Below are positions 33,136 through 42,506 of a DNA stretch of 64,000 bases, in pieces. The notes beneath the pieces were generated by a model. The model did no database searches and was not told where the DNA came from. It worked only from the letters and a program-made list of their open reading frames with translations. Each line of letters opens with the position of its first letter. The first letter of the stretch is position 1. The DNA lies in assembly GCA_050250855.1 (NCBI GenBank), contig JBFWNW010000004.1, positions 1 through 64,000 of the forward strand, given 5' to 3'. This DNA comes from Candidatus Babeliales bacterium. GTDB taxonomy: Bacteria; Babelota; Babeliae; Babelales; JACPOV01. The position numbers were made by a program, and so were the translations under genes.

Positions 33136-34449
33136 ATGAAGCGTCTTCTTTTTTCTTATAAAGATTCTGCTTTAATAAAGCAAGAAAAACTTGCTGCATT
33201 AGCAAAAGATTTAACGCCAGAAATTGAACACATACAAGATCAGCTGTTTTTGGGATATGCAACTGATTATGCATCATTAAATCTTCCAGCAGATAAAGCA
33301 TTGTATCAAGAAGTTGCCGCCATTGCTGCTGAAAAAAAAGCATGTGATCCTGAGCTTGTTATAGTATGCGGTATTGGCGGGTCTCAGCTTGGTACACAAG
33401 CAGTTGTTGAAGCATTAAGTGGTGTTCTTTATCATCAAAGAACTAAGCCTAAAATTTATTTTGCCGATACGGTTGATACTGCAGCAATACAACTACTTTA
33501 TGATAAAGCAGAGGAGTATTTAAAGCTTGGTAAAAATATCATTCTTAATGTAGTTACTAAATCAGGAACAACGACGGAAACTATAGCAAATTTTGAAATT
33601 TTTTTAGCATTGTTAAAAAAATATAAGCCAGATGCTTTTCATAAATTTGTTGTGGTAACAACAGATTATAATTCTCCTTTGCAGGCCTTGGCGCGAGATT
33701 ATAAATTTTCTATTCTTTCAATCCCTGAAAAAGTTGGTGGCAGGTATTCAGTTTTTTCTGCGGTTGGCCAATTTATTTTTATGCTTCTTGGTTTTGACAC
33801 GCAGGAGCTTTTGCAAGGAGCGCAAGATGCCTTGCAATGGTGCACTAATACTGACTATCAAGAAAATCCTGCAGCATTAAGTGCCATGATAAAATATGAA
33901 CAGTATACGCACAACAAAGTAATTATTAATGATTTTTTTGCCTTTTCATTACAGCTGGAATCTGTTGGCAAATGGTACCGCCAATTAGTAGGGGAAAGTT
34001 TAGGAAAAGAGTTTGACCGTGAAGGGAAAAAAGTTAACAGGGGTATAACACCAACAGTTTCGTTAGGCAGTAATGATTTACACTCGGTTGGGCAGCTTTA
34101 TTTAGGCGGCCCATTCGATAAATTCATTACATTCGTGAGCGTGCAAGAGTATAAAAGTCCTTTAGAAGTGCCACATTTTCCTGAATTTAATAATTTGGTT
34201 GCGAACATACAACAAAAAACGTTACCTTCTATAATGAATGCCATTGTGCTGGGGGTAAAAAATGCGTATAAAAATCAACAAAGACCTTTTTGTTCACTTG
34301 TATTACCTAAAATTTCGCCGTATTATATTGGGCAGTTGTTACAACTGTACATGATTGAAGTTATGTATTTAGGATACTTGCTAAAGGTAAATTGTTTCGA
34401 TCAACCGAATGTAGAATTGTATAAAATTGAAACAAGAAAGATCTTATGA
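33136..34449 (+). CDS. pgi: glucose-6-phosphate isomerase
   Basis: GIGGSQLG, KSGTTTET, VGGRYSV, ESLGK, DLHSVGQ, FDQPNVE motifs. Confidence 0.95.
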   Translation: MKRLLFSYKDSALIKQEKLAALAKDLTPEIEHIQDQLFLGYATDYASLNLPADKALYQEVAAIAAEKKACDPELVIVCGIGGSQLGTQAVVEALSGVLYHQRTKPKIYFADTVDTAAIQLLYDKAEEYLKLGKNIILNVVTKSGTTTETIANFEIFLALLKKYKPDAFHKFVVVTTDYNSPLQALARDYKFSILSIPEKVGGRYSVFSAVGQFIFMLLGFDTQELLQGAQDALQWCTNTDYQENPAALSAMIKYEQYTHNKVIINDFFAFSLQLESVGKWYRQLVGESLGKEFDREGKKVNRGITPTVSLGSNDLHSVGQLYLGGPFDKFITFVSVQEYKSPLEVPHFPEFNNLVANIQQKTLPSIMNAIVLGVKNAYKNQQRPFCSLVLPKISPYYIGQLLQLYMIEVMYLGYLLKVNCFDQPNVELYKIETRKIL

Positions 34450-35849
34450 TTGATTGTACCTTTATTATTCTTGGTGCAACGGGTGATTTGGCAAAGCGTA
34501 AACTTATTCCCGCTTTATATAAACTTGTGCAAGACAAAAAAATTCGCAATTTTTTAATTGTTGGCGCAGCGCTCGAGCAGGTAACTGCTGATGAATGTAT
34601 TGACCGTGGGCGCATCTTTATTCCCAATGTAGATGAAGAAATCTGGCGTCGTTTAAAAAAATCTTTTTATTATCAGCAGCTTGATTTTAATGACCATAAA
34701 GGGTTTAAGCATTTAAACCAATTTATTGATTCATTAGAAAAAGAGCACTCTTTTGCAGGCAATCGTTTAGTATATATGGCAGTTCCATCACTTTTTTTCT
34801 GTACTATAACTAAACATCTTGGTGCTTCTGGTATTGTTAAAAAATCTGACAGTAAAGGATTAGTAGGTGGCCATTGGCAGCGCATTATCTACGAAAAACC
34901 ATTCGGTACCAGTTTAGAATCTGCTCGTGATATTAATGCTTGCATACATGAATATTTTAATGAAAATCAAATTTATCGTATTGATCATTATTTAACAAAA
35001 GAGTTAGTAGGCAGTATTTTATTAGCGCGCTTTACGAATATGATTTTTGAACCACTATGGAATAGTAATTATATAGAAGAAGTGCAGATCATTTTAAGTG
35101 AAACACTCGGGGTAGAAGGAAGAGGAATTTATTATGATCAGTATGGTGTGTTAAAAGATATGGTACAAAATCATATGCTGCAACTGATGGCTCTTGTTGC
35201 CATGGAGCTTCCAGAGCAGCTTGATGCACATTATATTCGCGATCAAAAAGCAGCAGTACTCAAAAAAATAAAATGTGTAGGTGGCGTATTAGGGCAATAT
35301 GACGGGTACCTTCAAGAAAAAAATGTTGCTTCAAATTCGCAAACGCCAACCTTTGCCTTACTTGCTATGCATGTTGATACGCCTCGTTGGAAAGGTGTTC
35401 CTTTTTATATAAAAACAGGAAAAACATTATTTCACAAAAATAGTTCTATTCATATTAAGTTTAAAGAAGTTTCGTGTAAGTTGCGTGATCGTTGTATGTA
35501 TACTTCAGATTATTTGAGTATACAAATAGATCCTGATTCAAGTTTTTCTTTGCAATTGAATATTAAAAAACCTGGCCAAACCTATGAAGTAACGCCGGTT
35601 AATTTACATTTTAGTCATAATTATGTTTTTGGTACCACAACGCCAGAAGCATATGAAGTTCTTTTAGAACAAATTATGATGGGAGAACAATCGGTCTCAG
35701 TGCGTTTTGATGAAATAGAATCTTCTTGGCATATCATTGAGCAAATTGAGCAGCTTAAATTGCCAGTGCTCCCTTATAAGCAAAGTTCTCAAGGACCACA
35801 TGAAGCAGAACTTTTTGCAGAAAAACATAAATTATGGTGGCGAGCATGA
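34446..35849 (+). CDS. zwf: glucose-6-phosphate dehydrogenase
   Basis: GATGDLA, EKPFG, RIDHYL, DMVQNH, RWKGVPF motifs. Confidence 0.96.
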   Translation: MIDCTFIILGATGDLAKRKLIPALYKLVQDKKIRNFLIVGAALEQVTADECIDRGRIFIPNVDEEIWRRLKKSFYYQQLDFNDHKGFKHLNQFIDSLEKEHSFAGNRLVYMAVPSLFFCTITKHLGASGIVKKSDSKGLVGGHWQRIIYEKPFGTSLESARDINACIHEYFNENQIYRIDHYLTKELVGSILLARFTNMIFEPLWNSNYIEEVQIILSETLGVEGRGIYYDQYGVLKDMVQNHMLQLMALVAMELPEQLDAHYIRDQKAAVLKKIKCVGGVLGQYDGYLQEKNVASNSQTPTFALLAMHVDTPRWKGVPFYIKTGKTLFHKNSSIHIKFKEVSCKLRDRCMYTSDYLSIQIDPDSSFSLQLNIKKPGQTYEVTPVNLHFSHNYVFGTTTPEAYEVLLEQIMMGEQSVSVRFDEIESSWHIIEQIEQLKLPVLPYKQSSQGPHEAELFAEKHKLWWRA

Positions 35850-36742
35850 AAGTAGGATTTATAGGTTTAGGAAAAATGGGTTCTGCACTTGTAACGCGTG
35901 CATTGCAAGATGGTCACGAGGTTGTTGGCTTTGATACTCATAAAGAGAATTCACAAGATTTAAAGCAACATAAAAATTTTACGTTTGCACACGATTTAAA
36001 AAGTTTAGTAGATGACACACGGATACTCTGGCTCATGGTCCCGGCTGGCAAGATAGTGGATAACGTTCTTGATGAACTTAAGCCACATCTTGCTGGTCGC
36101 CCTATTATTGTAGATGGAGGCAATAGTAAATTTACTGACTCAATACGTCGCGCCAAAGAATTAGAAACGTGCGGCGTGCATTTTTTAGATTGCGGCACAT
36201 CGGGCGGTATACGTGGTAAAGAAATTGGTTTTTCATTAATGGTTGGTGGCAATCAAGATGCGTACGATGAAATAAAACCATTATTGCAATCATTAGCAGC
36301 ACCCAATGGTTTTGGGTACATGGGCCCTTCGGGTGCAGGGCATTATGTAAAAATGGTGCATAATGGCATTGAATATGCATTAATGCAAAGTTACGCAGAA
36401 GGATTTCATCTTTTAAAGGATGGACATTTTAAAGAATTAGACTTGGCAAAAATTTCTTCAGTTTGGTATAATGGCTCCGTCATTCGCTCATGGCTTTTAG
36501 AATTATGCCATGAAATTTTTCTGCACCCTGAAACATTACAAAAAATTTCAGGAAGCGTTGCAGAAAGCGGGATGGCTCAATGGACTATTGAAGATGCACA
36601 TAAGCATGACATTCCCGTTCAGCTCATTGAAGATGCGTTAGAGATTCGTTTTTGGTCACAGGAGACAGGAGGCAATTATGCTACAAAAGTTGTTGCAATG
36701 CTGCGCAATAAATTCGGCGGCCATGAAGTTCAAAAAAAATAG
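35846..36742 (+). CDS. gnd: 6-phosphogluconate dehydrogenase (decarboxylating, short type)
   Basis: GLGKMG, DGGNS, GTSGG, KMVHNGIEY, RNKFGGH motifs. Confidence 0.95.
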   Translation: MKVGFIGLGKMGSALVTRALQDGHEVVGFDTHKENSQDLKQHKNFTFAHDLKSLVDDTRILWLMVPAGKIVDNVLDELKPHLAGRPIIVDGGNSKFTDSIRRAKELETCGVHFLDCGTSGGIRGKEIGFSLMVGGNQDAYDEIKPLLQSLAAPNGFGYMGPSGAGHYVKMVHNGIEYALMQSYAEGFHLLKDGHFKELDLAKISSVWYNGSVIRSWLLELCHEIFLHPETLQKISGSVAESGMAQWTIEDAHKHDIPVQLIEDALEIRFWSQETGGNYATKVVAMLRNKFGGHEVQKK

Positions 36743-37031
36743 TTTACTGTTTATAGTTTTATGCAGTAGCCAGTTGGCATTAAGTTATCCACCACCATTT
36801 GAGTTGAGCAATAGAAAACCTCAACAACAAGAGATGTCAGAAAATGCTAGCACGAATCAGTTGCATAAGAAAAAAAATTTTGATTGTAATGATTGTTTAT
36901 CATGCAAGAAAAAAATGTGTGAGCGATTCTGGAAGCTAGACGAGGTAGTGTTTGCTGGACTCGCAATGGTTTTTCTAGGTGGTTGTAACTATTTATATGA
37001 ATCATGCAATGATAATACTCATTTAGAATAA
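36678..37031 (+). CDS. secreted cassette protein 1 (overlaps the gnd 3' end)
   Basis: AGGAGG then ATG 36678; shared leader MKFKK.SLL.IVLCSSQLA; alternative start 36723. Confidence 0.6.
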   Translation: MLQKLLQCCAINSAAMKFKKNSLLFIVLCSSQLALSYPPPFELSNRKPQQQEMSENASTNQLHKKKNFDCNDCLSCKKKMCERFWKLDEVVFAGLAMVFLGGCNYLYESCNDNTHLE

Positions 37032-37039
37032 GGTAAGTC

Positions 37040-37552
37040 ATGCTACAAAAATTGTTGCAATGCTGCGCAATAAATTCGGCGGCCATGAAGTTCAAAAAAA
37101 GTAGTTTACTGCTTATAGTTTTATGCAGTAGCCAGTTGGCAGTAAGTATGGATAAGCGCCAGCTAAAGCAGGGCCCAAAGGGTAATACTTTGAGTTCTTG
37201 CAAAGTTCTTGCAAAAAATGCAAAGAAAAATAAAAAACTTCAAGATTCAAAGAATTCTAAGATACAAAGAAATCGCCAGATGCCACAAGGAAACCGTCAG
37301 ATTTTGCCAAGAAACCTAGAACAAGGGGTTGAAGTTGTAGGAGAAATGGCGTTAATGCGAGATAATAATCATAATTATGCGCAATTTTTTAGATTTCCTG
37401 TGCTTTTTTCATTGATTATTTTTGTCATTTTCATGAATTTTAATAATGACACTAATAATACAAGACAAGAAATCCAGACTACAAAAGATTTCACTGGTCA
37501 TCATTTAGGATCACTTAAATCTACTTTTATGAATAATGAACCTAATCAATAA
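37040..37552 (+). CDS. secreted cassette protein 2
   Basis: Same leader, divergent basic body plus a TM segment. Confidence 0.65.
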   Translation: MLQKLLQCCAINSAAMKFKKSSLLLIVLCSSQLAVSMDKRQLKQGPKGNTLSSCKVLAKNAKKNKKLQDSKNSKIQRNRQMPQGNRQILPRNLEQGVEVVGEMALMRDNNHNYAQFFRFPVLFSLIIFVIFMNFNNDTNNTRQEIQTTKDFTGHHLGSLKSTFMNNEPNQ

Positions 37553-37567
37553 AAACAGGAGACAATT

Positions 37568-37954
37568 ATGTTGCAAAAATTGTTGCAATGCGACGCAATA
37601 AATTTAGCAGACATGAAGTTCAAAAAAAGCTGCCTATTGCTTATGCTTTTATGCTGCAGCCAGTTGGCATTAAGTATGGAAGAAGGTGGTTTCCGTAAAA
37701 GAAAGCCTCAAGAACAACAGATGACACAGAGCGAAGATTCTGAGTTTCAAAAAGAAGTTGCTCGCCAGCGAGAAATAAACGAAGCAATACAAAAGCGGCA
37801 AGAAGCGGAATTTAGAGCAAGGGATAATGATTGTACTAATGGTTGTTTTTGTTTGATTGCTTTAGGGCTTATCTGTTTTGAGTTTTTGCTGCAACCTCTT
37901 CTTATTGCTTCATACTATAGTGACAGAGGAGATAACTGGCGTCCACCATATTAA
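37568..37954 (+). CDS. secreted cassette protein 3
   Basis: Same leader; RKPQEQQM shared with cassette 1; Cys-containing TM. Confidence 0.65.
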   Translation: MLQKLLQCDAINLADMKFKKSCLLLMLLCCSQLALSMEEGGFRKRKPQEQQMTQSEDSEFQKEVARQREINEAIQKRQEAEFRARDNDCTNGCFCLIALGLICFEFLLQPLLIASYYSDRGDNWRPPY

Positions 37955-37985
37955 TCTTAAGATCTGAACCTTAAAATTAAATTTT

Positions 37986-38023
37986 AAAAAGGCTCAATGA
38001 TCAATGGTCATTGGGCCTTTTTT
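37986..38023 (+). terminator. intrinsic terminator after the gnd cassette array
   Basis: aaaaaggctcaatga-tcaatgg-tcattgggcctttttt. Confidence 0.8.
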
Positions 38024-38070
38024 GCGTTATACTGCTAGGAAATTATTAACAAAAAACTTTAGTTATTTAT

Positions 38071-38796
38071 ATGGTATATTTTTTTCTTTTATTTTTTTTA
38101 TTGCATACGAGCACTGATCTATGCCAAGAGTATGAAACTTATTTTCAAGAATTTCCTCAAGCAATAAATTTTCACATTCTTAATTATGTGATATCAAATA
38201 CAACAAAAGCCAAGCATAAAATTGCAAAAATAAGCAACGTTAAGCCATTTGATGAACTCTGTGCATGGGAGTGGTCTGATACAGAGCATCCACGGCCTTT
38301 GCGTATAGAAAGTGCAATTCTTGCTAGTACAGAAATTAATACTAAAAATATTGCAGGAATATTGAAGCGTGCTGATCAATTGAAAGATGAAAAGAAAAAG
38401 CAAGAATGCTATAACGCCTTGAACGTTGCAGATCCTTGGTATATGCACTTCTATAATGCTCTTACGTGTGGCAGCTGTACTCTTTGCAGCTGTAAAACAG
38501 CTGACAAGCTTCATGCTGAACATGTTAAAAGTTATGAAAATTTAGTAAGGAAAAAATATGGTATTGAAGCGCTTGATGAAGAAAAAATTAAAACTATGTA
38601 TAATTTTAATAGTTATGTAGAGAAAAAAAAGAATGCTCAGTGCTTTGTACCACTATGTTTAGGAGGGACTTTTTTGAGTTTTGTTTGTTTTCCTTGCTTA
38701 ATAGTTTCACTCAGTGCTCAACTCTATGAAAACTATTGTTGTAGTTGTTGTGTGCGCTGCTGTCGTGAGTGTGATGAGGTTTCTTTTGCACACTGA
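38071..38796 (+). CDS. secreted F-box-like, Cys-rich 'KYG' family protein
   Basis: FQEFPQAINFHILNYV..VKPFDELC; VRKKYG; poly-Cys C-terminus. Confidence 0.7.
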   Translation: MVYFFLLFFLLHTSTDLCQEYETYFQEFPQAINFHILNYVISNTTKAKHKIAKISNVKPFDELCAWEWSDTEHPRPLRIESAILASTEINTKNIAGILKRADQLKDEKKKQECYNALNVADPWYMHFYNALTCGSCTLCSCKTADKLHAEHVKSYENLVRKKYGIEALDEEKIKTMYNFNSYVEKKKNAQCFVPLCLGGTFLSFVCFPCLIVSLSAQLYENYCCSCCVRCCRECDEVSFAH

Positions 38797-38831
38797 ATTG
38801 CTAGAAAATTATTAATAAATCCAGGTTTTAC

Positions 38832-39488
38832 ATGAGAAGATTTTTTTTTCTAGTTGGTTTGTATAGTTCTTATTTTTTTTGCCAAGAAAAAGATCTCCAT
38901 AATCTTGCAGTCCAACCTTATGATATAAAAAATACTGTTATCGATTTTGTTATGCAGCTGCCACCCAATAGTTCATGGCAAGAAAAAAAAGCAGTGCTCA
39001 AAGATACGCTCAGTTTAATGCAGGTCAATAAAGAATTTAAGCAGTTAATAAATACTAAAAAAGAAAAGCTAGAGCTTCTTAAAAAAGTTGTACTATTATT
39101 ATCCCCTGATGCAAGACCGACTCCTAAAGATATAAAATTTTGCATGGATTATGCTGTACAACAGAATGATAAAATAGCTCTCGATCGTGCGTATCAAGCA
39201 ATTTCAATAGGCCAAAAAGATGCTTTTGATAGTGGCTCTTTGTTTGAATTATGCTGCTATTTTCCATCGACACAAGAAAAAAATCTTATCTTTACTAATC
39301 AGTTTAATGATGCAGTACAAAAAAAGTACGGATTACAAAAAATAGACTATGAGCAGTTGCAAAAATATGAAAGCTATGAAACTTTTATATTTTGGAGATG
39401 GATTTTCAATTGTATAGTATGCCCATGCTATGTAGGATGTAAGAATAAGCCTTGGCAAAAGGGCATGAAAGGAGCAAGAATTGAATAA
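38832..39488 (+). CDS. secreted F-box-like 'KYG' family protein
   Basis: QPYDIKNTVIDFV..LSLMQVNKEFKQLI; VQKKYG; upstream tgctag.aaattattaa duplicated from 38030. Confidence 0.7.
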   Translation: MRRFFFLVGLYSSYFFCQEKDLHNLAVQPYDIKNTVIDFVMQLPPNSSWQEKKAVLKDTLSLMQVNKEFKQLINTKKEKLELLKKVVLLLSPDARPTPKDIKFCMDYAVQQNDKIALDRAYQAISIGQKDAFDSGSLFELCCYFPSTQEKNLIFTNQFNDAVQKKYGLQKIDYEQLQKYESYETFIFWRWIFNCIVCPCYVGCKNKPWQKGMKGARIE

Positions 39489-40038
39489 GTATACTACGTT
39501 CTGGGGCATATTCTTTTTTTGTACGACCGTTTTCTGTATGGATGATTCTCAGTTTATGTTCCCTATAAATCTTCCCATGTCTGAGCATCAAATAGAACTT
39601 GATCCAACATGCTTTCAAAATATAGGGGATATGTGTACTTGTGTATTACCAGGACCTCATGAGAAAACACCCTTTCGAGCATATTGGGATGAAGAATGTT
39701 ATAAAGGATTTACCCAGCGTGTCCAAGAAAAATATGGCATTGATAAACCTATTCCAGAAAAAAGCTCCCATGATTATTTACACTATCGAGCATCAAGAGA
39801 AGAGTATTTGGGCTGTTGTTTGGCTGGGCTGATAAACTCTTTGAGATGTTGCTGCTGCCCTTGCTTGACAGCATATTCATGCTGCTGTGATGTTTGTCCG
39901 TGTTTAGATGTTTGCCCATGGGAAAGCTATGCATGCGAATGGTTTTTAAAACCTGTATGTTGTGATGAAGATGCGTGTATAGGGTATTCTTGTTCAGCGT
40001 GTTGTTTTTGTTGCTGCACCGTGTGTGATAGTCAATGA
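39481..40038 (+). CDS. secreted, extremely Cys-rich 'KYG' family protein
   Basis: VQEKYG; CCCCPC and CCFCCC runs. Confidence 0.7.
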   Translation: MNKYTTFWGIFFFCTTVFCMDDSQFMFPINLPMSEHQIELDPTCFQNIGDMCTCVLPGPHEKTPFRAYWDEECYKGFTQRVQEKYGIDKPIPEKSSHDYLHYRASREEYLGCCLAGLINSLRCCCCPCLTAYSCCCDVCPCLDVCPWESYACEWFLKPVCCDEDACIGYSCSACCFCCCTVCDSQ

Positions 40039-40106
40039 TTTACTAAAATCATACTCTTGAAATAGTTAGTTGAAATTTGATAATTGTATATAAAAAAGGG
40101 AATTAT

Positions 40107-40322
40107 ATGAATTATAAAGTAGTTGTACTGAATATTATTTTTTGTGCGTCCTGCTTATATGCGCAAGAAGATCAATCTATTCCATTACCAAAAAAAACAG
40201 ACGTAAATATTAAAAAAAATGGCTCTAAAGATCTTGAAAAATTGGGTGAGGCAGCAGCTTATGGCCTTCAAGAAGTATTAGCTATAGTTCAAAAGTACTA
40301 CCTTATGCTTACAACAGAATAA
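40107..40322 (+). CDS. small hypothetical secreted protein
   Basis: Signal peptide ending LYA. Confidence 0.5.
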   Translation: MNYKVVVLNIIFCASCLYAQEDQSIPLPKKTDVNIKKNGSKDLEKLGEAAAYGLQEVLAIVQKYYLMLTTE

Positions 40323-40345
40323 AGAATTCATTCCAAGGAGTTTGC

Positions 40346-40981
40346 ATGAAGATAATTGATATCAGTTGGCCTATCTCTGAAGCTATGACTGAATATAAGG
40401 ATGGCAAGTCGGTAAAACTTACGCCAACCAAAACTATGGAGCATAATGGCGTACGGGAATGGCTTTTGCAGATGAATAACCATACAGGAACGCATATAGA
40501 TGGCCCTGCGCATTTTCTTGCAACCGGGCAAACGATTGATAAGTTTGAATTGCAAAGTGTAATTGGTCCATGCCGCGTACTAGATCTAACCTCGGTGACC
40601 GAAAAAATAATGCCAGAAGATTTAGAGCCGTTTGGTATAGAAAAAAATGAAATTATTCTTTTAAAAACAACTAACAGTTTTCGCCAGCCTACCGATAATT
40701 TTACCTATAATTTTGCCTATATAAGTGACGCCGCTGCTCATTATCTTGCGCACGCACGCATAAAAGCGTTAGGCTTTGATTATCTTGGTATTGAGCGTAA
40801 CCAGCCAAACCATGATACGCACAAAGCATTTATGCAGTTTAATATTCCTATAGTGGAAGGATTGCGTTTAGGTGCAGTAAGTGCTGGTTCATATTTTTTT
40901 GTTTGTTTGCCACTGTATGCAGTTGGTCTTGATTCTGCACCGGCCCGTGCAGTGTTGCTTGAAGGGGTGAAAGTAACATGA
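40346..40981 (+). CDS. cyclase-family metal hydrolase (kynurenine formamidase-like)
   Basis: HTGTHIDGPAH, GFDYLGI, IVEGL, SAPARAVL motifs. Confidence 0.9.
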   Translation: MKIIDISWPISEAMTEYKDGKSVKLTPTKTMEHNGVREWLLQMNNHTGTHIDGPAHFLATGQTIDKFELQSVIGPCRVLDLTSVTEKIMPEDLEPFGIEKNEIILLKTTNSFRQPTDNFTYNFAYISDAAAHYLAHARIKALGFDYLGIERNQPNHDTHKAFMQFNIPIVEGLRLGAVSAGSYFFVCLPLYAVGLDSAPARAVLLEGVKVT

Positions 40982-41646
40982 AGAAGTTATGTATTATTTT
41001 TATGCTAGCAGGAACTTTGGGTGCAATGGAGCCGAAGAAATCTGACAAAGGTAAAAAAGAAACAACGCCATTGCTTAAAAAAGAGTCTAATTCATCTCAA
41101 TCGAGTGACTATCATAATTCAGGATTTGAGGTTTCTTCTTCTAGTGATGCTAGTTTGCTTAAGCCAACAACGCAAATGATGGAAGTTGAAGAGTGTGAAA
41201 AGAAGTATGAGCAAAGAAAAGAAATAATGCAGAAAGCTATAGCTGGCATAAAAGCATGTAGAAATAACATTGACAATGTGAAGCTTACTACTGATTATAG
41301 CTTTATTATTTGGGTTGCAAAAGATAAAGCTGAGGAATTTAAAAAATATTACTATCAGCTTGTTGCGGTGCAAAACTTACAACATAAAGATGAAAAGTGG
41401 GAAACATATCCTGTTTCTGGTAATTGTTGTTATAGCGGCACTCTTATAGAAAGAAAGACAGCTTCTATACGTCCAGTATTAGATGAAAACTGTTTGAGAA
41501 ACGAACTTGGTGATTTAGGTTGTTTACTCTATCGTGTTTTAACGGTATCTGAGTATGATGAATCATTGATGTTTTATTCTGATTTTCCTCGTAACGTTTC
41601 ACGAAATACCTTAACGGAGTATGTTAAAGAATCAAAACGTCATTAA
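40978..41646 (+). CDS. hypothetical secreted protein
   Basis: Signal ending LGA-ME. Confidence 0.7.
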   Translation: MKKLCIIFMLAGTLGAMEPKKSDKGKKETTPLLKKESNSSQSSDYHNSGFEVSSSSDASLLKPTTQMMEVEECEKKYEQRKEIMQKAIAGIKACRNNIDNVKLTTDYSFIIWVAKDKAEEFKKYYYQLVAVQNLQHKDEKWETYPVSGNCCYSGTLIERKTASIRPVLDENCLRNELGDLGCLLYRVLTVSEYDESLMFYSDFPRNVSRNTLTEYVKESKRH

Positions 41647-41666
41647 TAAAAAAGAGGGGGACGGGG

Positions 41667-42506
41667 ATGATAAAAAATATAATACTTATTATAGGGATAA
41701 TTATTAGCTCATCAGTAGAGGGCATGGAACCTGAAGAGCTATTTCAAAAGCGCGTTGATGAAGAACAAAAAAAGAAAACAAAAAATTCGCCAAGACCAGA
41801 ACTTAATAAAAGGCTTGCTGTTTCTGAAGAAACGATACAAGCACATGATAAAAAAAGAGGGTTAACAGAAGCGTCTTTACTTTTTGTGCATCAGAAGAGA
41901 AATAGCCAGAACATTCTACCCGAAGGTCTTTCAAAAAGAAACTCTTATTATCAAGAGTATAGTCAGCTGGTGGAACTTATTAACGAAATTCCAGATGATA
42001 CTAAACGAGAAAATTTTGTTAAAACTATAATAAATAATAAGCAAGAAGAAGAGTTTGTTGCAAAAATGATCAATATTATTAACGAAAATGTGGTTGACTG
42101 TGAGATTAAATATGTAAGTCATACTGTTGATTATGAATCTGGCTGCACCATTACCGTACGAGCTATCCATAGCAAACAGCTTAAAAAAATCTTTTTAACC
42201 TTAAATGAACTTTATAAGCAGGAACAAGAAAAAGTATCTCTAGAAAATAAGCCAAAAAAAGGATCGTTCCTTAATATTTTTAGTTGGTCATTTTCAGAAA
42301 AAAAATCAGAAAAAGTGCCTGAGTCTGTTTTCAAAGAAAAAGAATTTAAAAAATTTGATACATGCCAAGACAATATTCTTTTTGAGCTTGCAACAAAGGG
42401 CTGCTATTTTGATGGCAGAACGCATTATACTCTTGATGAAATATTTAAGTTTAGCAAAGAAATTTCACCATACTCAGAAAGCTCACAGAATTTGTTTGGT
42501 GAATAA
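41667..42506 (+). CDS. hypothetical secreted protein
   Basis: Signal ending VEG-ME. Confidence 0.7.
   Translation: MIKNIILIIGIIISSSVEGMEPEELFQKRVDEEQKKKTKNSPRPELNKRLAVSEETIQAHDKKRGLTEASLLFVHQKRNSQNILPEGLSKRNSYYQEYSQLVELINEIPDDTKRENFVKTIINNKQEEEFVAKMINIINENVVDCEIKYVSHTVDYESGCTITVRAIHSKQLKKIFLTLNELYKQEQEKVSLENKPKKGSFLNIFSWSFSEKKSEKVPESVFKEKEFKKFDTCQDNILFELATKGCYFDGRTHYTLDEIFKFSKEISPYSESSQNLFGE

Follow-up and report, generated by a model that had tools for sequence, protein, structure and literature searches.

Secreted paralogues whose bodies diverge behind a common 5′ module are known from other systems. Examples are the erp genes of Borrelia, with an 'upstream homology box', and the vlp lipoprotein genes of Mycoplasma, in which a shared 5′ region and leader precede divergent mature parts, and the ESPR (PF13018), a conserved N-terminal extension ahead of a normal Sec signal peptide, is known from autotransporters and TpsA proteins, its carriers being large type V passengers. 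When genes on one strand seem to share a long overlap, the cause is almost always faulty annotation, and gene callers exclude such cases by rule. In the available text of the survey by Palleja et al., the longest overlap identified as real is that of holD and rimI in Enterobacteria, at 32–56 bp (PMC2478687), and the accessible accounts of overprinting describe an overlapping orphan gene of E. coli O157:H7 and laoB as genes born in this way (PMC4683798, PMC5810103). In the window analysed here, a stretch of 64,000 nucleotides (nt) from a Candidatus Babeliales bacterium represented only by metagenome assemblies (assembly GCA_050250855.1, contig JBFWNW010000004.1, positions 1–64,000 of the forward strand), three small open reading frames (ORFs), termed cassettes 1–3, follow gnd, the gene for a short-form 6-phosphogluconate dehydrogenase. 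Each begins with a copy of a 108-nt module, the first part of which matches the 3′ end of gnd in a different frame. What would be new relative to the systems above is that a housekeeping gene has supplied part of such a module, its coding sequence being reused in a second frame and later copied away from the parent gene. The disputed start persists in two paralogues that are now free of any overlap, which is rare internal evidence on whether an overlap is real.

A direct-repeat search recovered one family of three 108-nt units, each of exactly 36 codons, and a search of the whole genome (G000; 1.22 Mb in 11 contigs) matched the block only at these three sites (E < 1e-20), the next best match having an E-value of 0.0025 over 29 nt. 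The first 65 nt of the module (36678–36742) are the last 21 codons of gnd with its stop, read one base out of frame, and the rest encodes a signal peptide of n-h-c layout (MKFKK-NSLLFIVLCSS-QLALS). The Shine–Dalgarno (SD) motif and ATG of copy 1 are likewise built from gnd codons (ACA GGA GGC AAT TAT GCT), AGGAGG being supplied by those for Thr-Gly-Gly. The gene itself has both domains and the conserved C-terminal tail of the short-form enzyme, and this tail (GGNYATKVVAMLRNKFGGH) is conserved, with the same end point, across 98 scored gnd loci, of which related genomes contributed 20 and metagenome contigs 78; two more of the 100 loci matched were left out, one being partial and the other lacking a stop within the locus. 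Such conservation identifies gnd, on sequence grounds, as the donor of the tail, so that copies 2 and 3 hold a fossil of the gnd 3′ end.

These results agree with the preliminary description of the window, which had placed the SD, ATG and leader of the first gene inside gnd in another frame, and the ORF that it saw passing from 36678 through the gnd stop into a hydrophobic segment is indeed present (117 amino acids, aa). The repetition of the module before two more ORFs also holds, at 108 nt in place of the proposed ~120 bp, as does its reuse, insofar as frame and ATG are kept in both later copies and the SD in copy 3. A constant N-terminus on divergent bodies was likewise borne out, with modules 96% and 81% identical to copy 1 and bodies at the DNA identity of shuffled sequences. 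The description had further proposed an expression-plus-export module born from the alternative frame of gnd. This stands for the ribosome site, the ATG and the 15-residue pre-sequence, and fails for the export signal: the hydrophobic core and cleavage region of the signal peptide fall downstream of the gnd stop, and the gene of similar architecture in a sister genus (G002) has its own MKK start. The export signal is ordinary and lies mostly outside gnd.

The boundaries and substitutions of the modules indicate the order in which the copies arose. Similarity to copy 1 begins at the ATG in copy 2 and at the SD in copy 3, which additionally shares ~16 nt upstream, SD included (ACAGGAGACAATT versus ACAGGAGGCAATT); in both, the conserved block stops at the predicted cleavage site, codon 36. 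Between copies 1 and 2, 4 of the 108 module positions differ, and the DNA identity of their bodies (0.42) is that of shuffled sequences (0.44), a combination that suggests recent duplication of the module or gene conversion. For the three body comparisons together, the identities are 0.42, 0.53 and 0.48, against shuffle levels of 0.44, 0.50 and 0.46. As an outgroup we used G001, a genome of the same genus (gnd 72% identical) with the same gene order and a single cassette. By this comparison, copies 1 and 2 have two derived bases in common, one of which (TTT to TTC) is silent in gnd and changes Leu to Ser in the cassette frame. A shared change that is silent in gnd argues that copy 2 took its module from the gnd-linked copy at a time when copy 3 had already separated.

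The central question is which ATG is used, that at the head of each module or the in-frame ATG 15 codons further on, which opens the signal peptide. The 16S tail carries CCTCC and SD motifs are used genome-wide, with an SD core of at least 4 nt before 50% of 810 first ATGs of long ORFs versus 6.6% of 5,284 internal ATGs. The upstream ATGs are preceded by AGGAGG (copy 1), AAGG/AGGT (copy 2) and AGGAG (copy 3), whereas the three internal ATGs in this genome lack an SD. The upstream ATGs of copies 2 and 3 stand 8 and 15 nt past the previous stop, and their internal ATGs 53 and 60 nt past it; as far as the available text of the relevant study goes, termination–reinitiation is almost lost at distances of ~20 nt (PMC10666635), which counts against internal initiation in these copies. 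Although the body DNA of copy 3 has diverged to the identity of shuffled sequence, its SD, ATG and open frame were retained. Over the 15 leader codons of copies 1 and 3, the ratio of nonsynonymous to synonymous differences per site (pN/pS) is 0.19 in the cassette frame, compared to 0.81 and 0.67 in the gnd and the third frame, respectively. Of the eight changes assigned to the copy-3 lineage across 66 gnd-derived nt, with G001 as outgroup, five are silent in the cassette frame, one in the gnd frame and three in the third; this excess has a simulated P of 0.006–0.03 in what is a small sample. Stored gene calls also take the upstream ATG for copies 2 and 3 (170 and 128 aa).

Comparison with relatives points the same way. 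The G001 cassette has an ATG at the same −65 position, preceded by AGGAGG and opening a 113-aa ORF, and G001 and both free copies alike retain the ATG, its frame and the leader start MLQKLL. Palleja et al. regard an N-terminal extension that is kept in orthologues as the mark of a real overlap, according to the available part of their paper (PMC2478687); here both paralogues and the orthologue have retained it. Among the 98 gnd loci, 15 have the ATG and four have both the ATG and a frame open past the gnd stop, and only those of G000 and G001 combine the ATG with a 6-nt SD and a long ORF (117 and 113 aa), the other two open ORFs being 24 and 65 aa long. Taken together, these observations suggest that translation starts at the upstream ATG, possibly alongside the internal one, a conclusion that we hold with moderate confidence; the upstream start would be used in copies 2 and 3, and probably also in copy 1. 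More tentative, though still plausible, is the full reading, in which (i) the 15-residue leader is translated, (ii) the first gene and gnd share a 65-nt same-strand overlap, and (iii) an alternative frame of the gnd tail was recruited as ribosome site, start and pre-sequence and then copied twice. If true, the overlap exceeds the longest real one of the 2008 survey, and the free copies constitute a natural experiment on an overprinted segment released from its parent gene.

The same genes and the same history could also be served by translation from the internal ATG only (MKFKK, or MLKK in G001), with the 45 gnd-derived nt as an untranslated passenger or a 5′ initiation region and the upstream ATG as a harmless consequence of the GG[ND]Y[AG] motif in gnd. 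Several observations weigh for this alternative and against a translated leader. In the available text of the survey of Palleja et al., none of 715 co-directional overlaps analysed was real beyond 60 bp, the longest real one identified was no longer than 56 bp, and most such overlaps were mispredicted upstream starts with the correct start just downstream (PMC2478687), a prior in favour of the internal ATG. Translation from the internal start alone would yield a textbook signal peptide, the G002 gene of like architecture at the same position starts with MKK after the gnd stop, without an extension, and the internal ATG of G001 has its own SD (GGAGG, 5 nt before). The leader appears unconstrained between species, with no extra constraint on gnd synonymous sites in the overlap, where the synonymous divergence (pS) is 0.55 compared to 0.63 elsewhere in the gene; 35% of sliding windows reach an equally low or a lower value. 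In the 15 leader codons taken alone, 4 of 6 or 7 changes are silent (P 0.02–0.12), a weak signal; on the question of which frame is under selection in the free copies, raised in the preliminary description, the copy-3 segment favours the cassette frame (five of eight changes silent) and the leader alone does so only faintly.

Chance occurrence of the motif bears on the same question. Twelve of the 16 AGGAGG-N4–8-ATG sites in the genome precede ORFs shorter than 60 aa, and the GG[ND]Y[AG] motif gives rise to a cryptic SD (at least 4 nt) with ATG in 8 of the 98 gnd loci; of the six such loci outside the genus, five are open for only 4–24 codons. The stored calls for the two gnd-overlapping copies also use the internal start (102 and 97 aa), although a common gene caller bars same-strand overlaps longer than 60 nt, which would force that choice. 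What this alternative leaves unexplained in the present genome are the missing SDs of the internal ATGs, their distances from the preceding stops, the retention of SD, ATG and open frame in copy 3, substitutions on the copy-3 lineage that fit the cassette frame, and the callers' preference for the upstream ATG wherever gnd is not overlapped. On balance we consider exclusive use of the internal ATG unlikely, albeit far from negligible. Only one other site of comparable type (an ATG 20–200 nt before the stop of a long ORF) was found in G000: on the minus strand of contig C2, an SD-preceded ATG at 183125 starts a 343-aa ORF that overlaps a long ORF in another frame by 41 nt.

With the upstream start as the preferred reading, the following history can be proposed. 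The founder gene would have come to start inside gnd when its 5′ end slid into the gnd tail, where the conserved Thr-Gly-Gly-Asn-Tyr-Ala motif happens to spell AGGAGG-N5-ATG one frame over; in this genus, the reading frame continues without a stop from gnd into the signal peptide of the downstream gene. Tandem duplication would then have produced copy 3 early and copy 2 recently, or with later gene conversion, every duplicate taking along the 65-nt gnd tail. Freed from gnd in the duplicates, the tail would serve only as ribosome site, start codon and 15-residue pre-sequence before the n-h-c signal peptide. If this is correct, the locus illustrates a simple way for a young orphan gene to obtain its translation start ready-made from a conserved gene, and duplication can then spread that start.

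That the three ORFs are real genes is most likely on the evidence of their shared architecture. A signal peptide and a C-terminal transmembrane segment are kept in all four proteins (three cassettes and G001). As expected of Sec-type n- and h-regions, MKFKK (MLKK in G001) is followed by a hydrophobic stretch, and the 15-aa Kyte–Doolittle window after the n-region peaks at 1.87–2.2 in all four. A-L-S, A-V-S and I-M-A stand just before the point where the copies diverge, as a putative c-region, and no lipobox (a small residue before Cys) was seen by eye in the proteins. The second hydrophobic segment near the C-terminus of each ORF, noted in the preliminary description, is present in all three. 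Besides its signal peptide and C-terminal hydrophobic segment, the G001 protein has a polar stretch and a Cys motif. Bodies 1, 3 and that of G001 are significantly similar (z 3.1, 5.2 and 5.7, with 3, 0 and 0 of 300 shuffles as good), and similarity of body 2 to the other bodies was not detected (z at or below 0), save for a short M-D-x-R start.

The converse possibility is that the ORFs are chance frames in an AT-rich spacer that holds a decaying duplication of the gnd 3′ end. The proteins are of low complexity, Pfam returned nothing for cassettes 1 and 2 at E-values up to 0.1 and a single sub-threshold match for cassette 3 (DUF2514, E 0.098), and the Atlas gave no feature-based look-alike, only weak helical look-alikes to a poor model (predicted local distance difference test, pLDDT, 0.63; predicted template modelling score, pTM, 0.26). 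However, chance frames would not be expected to keep a signal peptide and a C-terminal transmembrane segment in all four genes, a module pN/pS of 0.22 in the cassette frame, or a G001 orthologue in the same place with significant body similarity. The ORFs are also tightly packed, with spacers of 8 and 15 nt and a terminator only after the last. In addition, a protein from a public 1,433-nt contig (P0005; 97 aa, listed as 'hypothetical protein') is identical to the G001 protein at 82 of 97 residues (85%) without gaps; the 15 differences are confined to the polar and membrane part, after residue 33, up to which the two proteins are identical. We therefore regard the chance-frame explanation as very improbable. 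The genes would form a genus-restricted orphan family of proteins of ~100–170 aa, predicted to be Sec-exported and anchored by the C-terminal segment, the proteins presumably being cleaved and facing the periplasm or surface. Their architecture and the lifestyle of the organism suggest that an envelope or host-facing role may apply.

Near-identical 5′ modules on unalike bodies could instead signal a dedicated variation system, in which mobile or shufflable cassettes (integron-like or for antigenic variation) use the 108-nt module as a recombination and expression site. Such a system might also be read into the 49-nt stretch exactly common to copies 1 and 2, which has roughly double depth in Logan contigs, and into the difference in copy number between two species (3 versus 1). 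Yet an inverted-repeat search of 36400–38100 found no attC-like or inverted-repeat sites at the unit boundaries, the only candidate being one A/T-rich pair of 18-mers (83%), and the three copies are the only ones in the genome, with no silent copies elsewhere. The ORFs of at least 110 aa in the 29–46 kb region look metabolic, ABC-transporter or orphan secreted from their translations, no search having been aimed at recombinases. Logan contigs of X1–X3, DNA runs of one study of which X1 and X2 are possibly the source, tile the array as assembled, without joints or indels; contigs of a fourth run, X4, touch only conserved parts of gnd, and no alternative joints occur in the contigs of the four runs, although contigs drop rare variants. 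Bodies 1, 3 and G001, as diverged homologues, are what plain tandem duplication predicts. A variation system thus has very little probability. The homologous bodies and the lack of detectable recombination sites indicate that the three genes are ordinary tandem paralogues, so that 'cassette', the word of the preliminary description, does not apply in the mobile sense; of the 'polymorphic' array that it proposed, only the difference in copy number is seen, the three tiling runs being without variant joints.

Members of the family have been found in two genomes and as one further protein variant. A word-based search of 5.8 billion proteins returned only the window's own three proteins, and a profile search of 1.84 billion representatives returned these and P0005 only. 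A metagenome scan with the family alignment gave 414 pattern matches, none of them confirmed; a second scan, with gnd, kept 80 loci (best 55% identical), none from this genus, and among species-representative genomes G001 was the only relative carrying the family. At the same place in G002, a gene starting MKKFSLL 39 nt past the gnd stop encodes a protein of 169 aa that resembles the cassettes in having a signal peptide and a hydrophobic segment at the C-terminus but shows no sequence similarity to them. A cyclase-like gene (MKIIDISWP...) directly follows gnd in 9 of 20 related Babeliales loci, its start overlapping the gnd stop by 4 nt in four of those nine, and in G000 it lies 3.6 kb past gnd (40346–40981). 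This displacement suggests that the cassettes are part of an island of orphan exported or membrane proteins (36743–40345) inserted between the two genes; the G001 island is shorter (~1.9 kb). Lineage-specific orphan exported membrane proteins in a Babeliales genome, from a phylum of protist parasites, are candidates for host interaction, although the practical weight of a family from two genomes and one further protein is modest.

Other ORFs of the neighbourhood have a similar character. Three more tandem orphan paralogues occupy 38071–40038 (38071–38796, 38832–39488 and 39481–40038), with one orthologue in G001 (L031:4434-5063). They have a hydrophobic N-terminus, an invariant V..KYG motif and a hydrophobic, very Cys-rich C-terminal tail (e.g. 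CCSCCVRCCRECDE), and nothing in Pfam matched them; in the search of 5.8 billion proteins the first one (38071–38796) found only itself. The cyclase-like gene is followed by two more ORFs with hydrophobic N-termini (40978–42506; 222 and 279 aa), which lack a counterpart between the cyclase-like and DJ-1/PfpI-like genes of G001 (names from translations only).

The features of the locus are collected in Table 1. The pgi-like ORF and zwf overlap, as do zwf and gnd, all on the same strand according to the ORF list. Close packing on one strand and a terminator at the end of the array suggest that the three small genes are probably co-transcribed with pgi-zwf-gnd. The terminator that the preliminary description placed after the third ORF was recovered by folding as a hairpin with a U-run, a simple terminator scan having missed it. 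An inverted repeat, read by eye, also follows the single cassette of G001. A sigma-70-like site inside gnd, ~200 nt before the cassette start (36443–36472; TTGGCA, 18 nt, TATAAT, TG before the −10; 11 of 12 positions), was discounted as evidence of an internal promoter because it is made of gnd codons (W-Y-N-G) and is absent from G001. Just before the gnd stop there is a run of eight A (36732–36739), and an mRNA lacking one A would encode a gnd–cassette fusion; the run is probably incidental, since copies 2 and 3 have seven A at this place and G001 has only five. On the minus strand, a 118-aa TTG-started ORF (36847–37203), probably a chance frame, lies antisense to cassettes 1 and 2 across module copy 2.

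Table 1. Features of the gnd–cassette locus, with positions in the window (nt unless stated).
Feature	Position	Strand	Remarks
pgi-like ORF	33136–34449	+	name from the look of the translation only
zwf	34446–35849	+	Pfam G6PD_N and G6PD_C
gnd, short-form 6-phosphogluconate dehydrogenase	35846–36742	+	Pfam NAD_binding_2 (1.3e-40) and 6PGD (1.2e-22)
AGGAGG SD motif of copy 1	36667–36672	+	5-nt spacer, then ATG 36678
Cassette 1 ORF	36678–37031	+	117 aa, or 102 aa from the internal ATG; begins MLQKLLQCCAINSAAMKFKK
Module copy 1, 36 codons	36678–36785	+	leader, codons 1–15: MLQKLLQCCAINSAA; signal peptide, codons 16–36: MKFKKNSLLFIVLCSSQLALS
Internal in-frame ATG (MKFKK), rival start of cassette 1	36723–36725	+	20 nt before the gnd end; upstream bases TTCGGCGGCC, no SD
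gnd stop codon	36740–36742	+	sequence reading
C-terminal hydrophobic segment of cassette 1	36936–36989 (aa 87–104)	+	hydropathy
Weak SD of cassette 2, AAGG/AGGT	overlaps cassette 1 stop	+	ATG 37040 is 8 nt past the same stop
Cassette 2 ORF	37040–37552	+	170 aa
Module copy 2	37040–37147	+	96% identical to copy 1
Transmembrane segment of cassette 2	37379–37447 (aa 114–136)	+	hydropathy
AGGAG SD of cassette 3	37557–37561	+	6 nt before ATG 37568; belongs to the ~16-nt gnd-derived upstream piece
Cassette 3 ORF	37568–37954	+	128 aa
Module copy 3	37568–37675	+	81% identical to copy 1
Transmembrane segment of cassette 3	37832–37912 (aa 89–115)	+	hydropathy
Intrinsic terminator, hairpin and U-run	37986–38022	+	−25.9 kcal/mol, z −4.77, 0 of 200 shuffles as good

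Literature searches for the arrangement yielded general work on overlaps and overprinting and, among the results listed, neither a gnd-derived leader nor the present family; the locus is best placed by comparison with the systems named at the outset. The likeness to erp and vlp lies in multi-copy genes for exported proteins, a near-identical expression and signal-peptide block ending near the cleavage site, and fast-diverging bodies, and the near-identity of the shared block is probably upheld, as in those families, by selection and gene conversion. The erp and vlp blocks have promoters and lipoprotein signal peptides and reside on prophage plasmids or in phase-variable loci, whereas the present module has no promoter, lipobox or switch, and part of it is a housekeeping coding fossil in another frame. 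The ESPR resembles the present arrangement in placing an N-terminal extension before a Sec signal peptide; however, the PF13018 model gave no match at E-values up to 0.1, and the proteins here are tiny, membrane-anchored and fitted with a lineage-specific extension of 15 aa. The overprinted genes of E. coli are alike in that new coding sequence arose in the alternative frame of an existing gene, but they are described, in the available texts, as whole small genes lying mostly antisense in the host gene (PMC4683798, PMC5810103). In the present ORF, an alternative sense frame of gnd accounts for no more than the first 21 codons, 15 of which precede the internal ATG, and the remainder of the gene lies outside gnd. 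Closest in geometry is holD/rimI, where the downstream gene also starts well within the 3′ end of the upstream gene in another frame, and where the overlap is likewise kept among related species with a genus-specific length; the difference, so far as the available text of the survey describes that pair, is that holD and rimI are two old conserved genes whose overlap was never copied elsewhere (PMC2478687). In the present locus, a putative overlap of 65 nt joins a housekeeping gene to an orphan exported protein, and the overlapped piece has been duplicated away from gnd twice.

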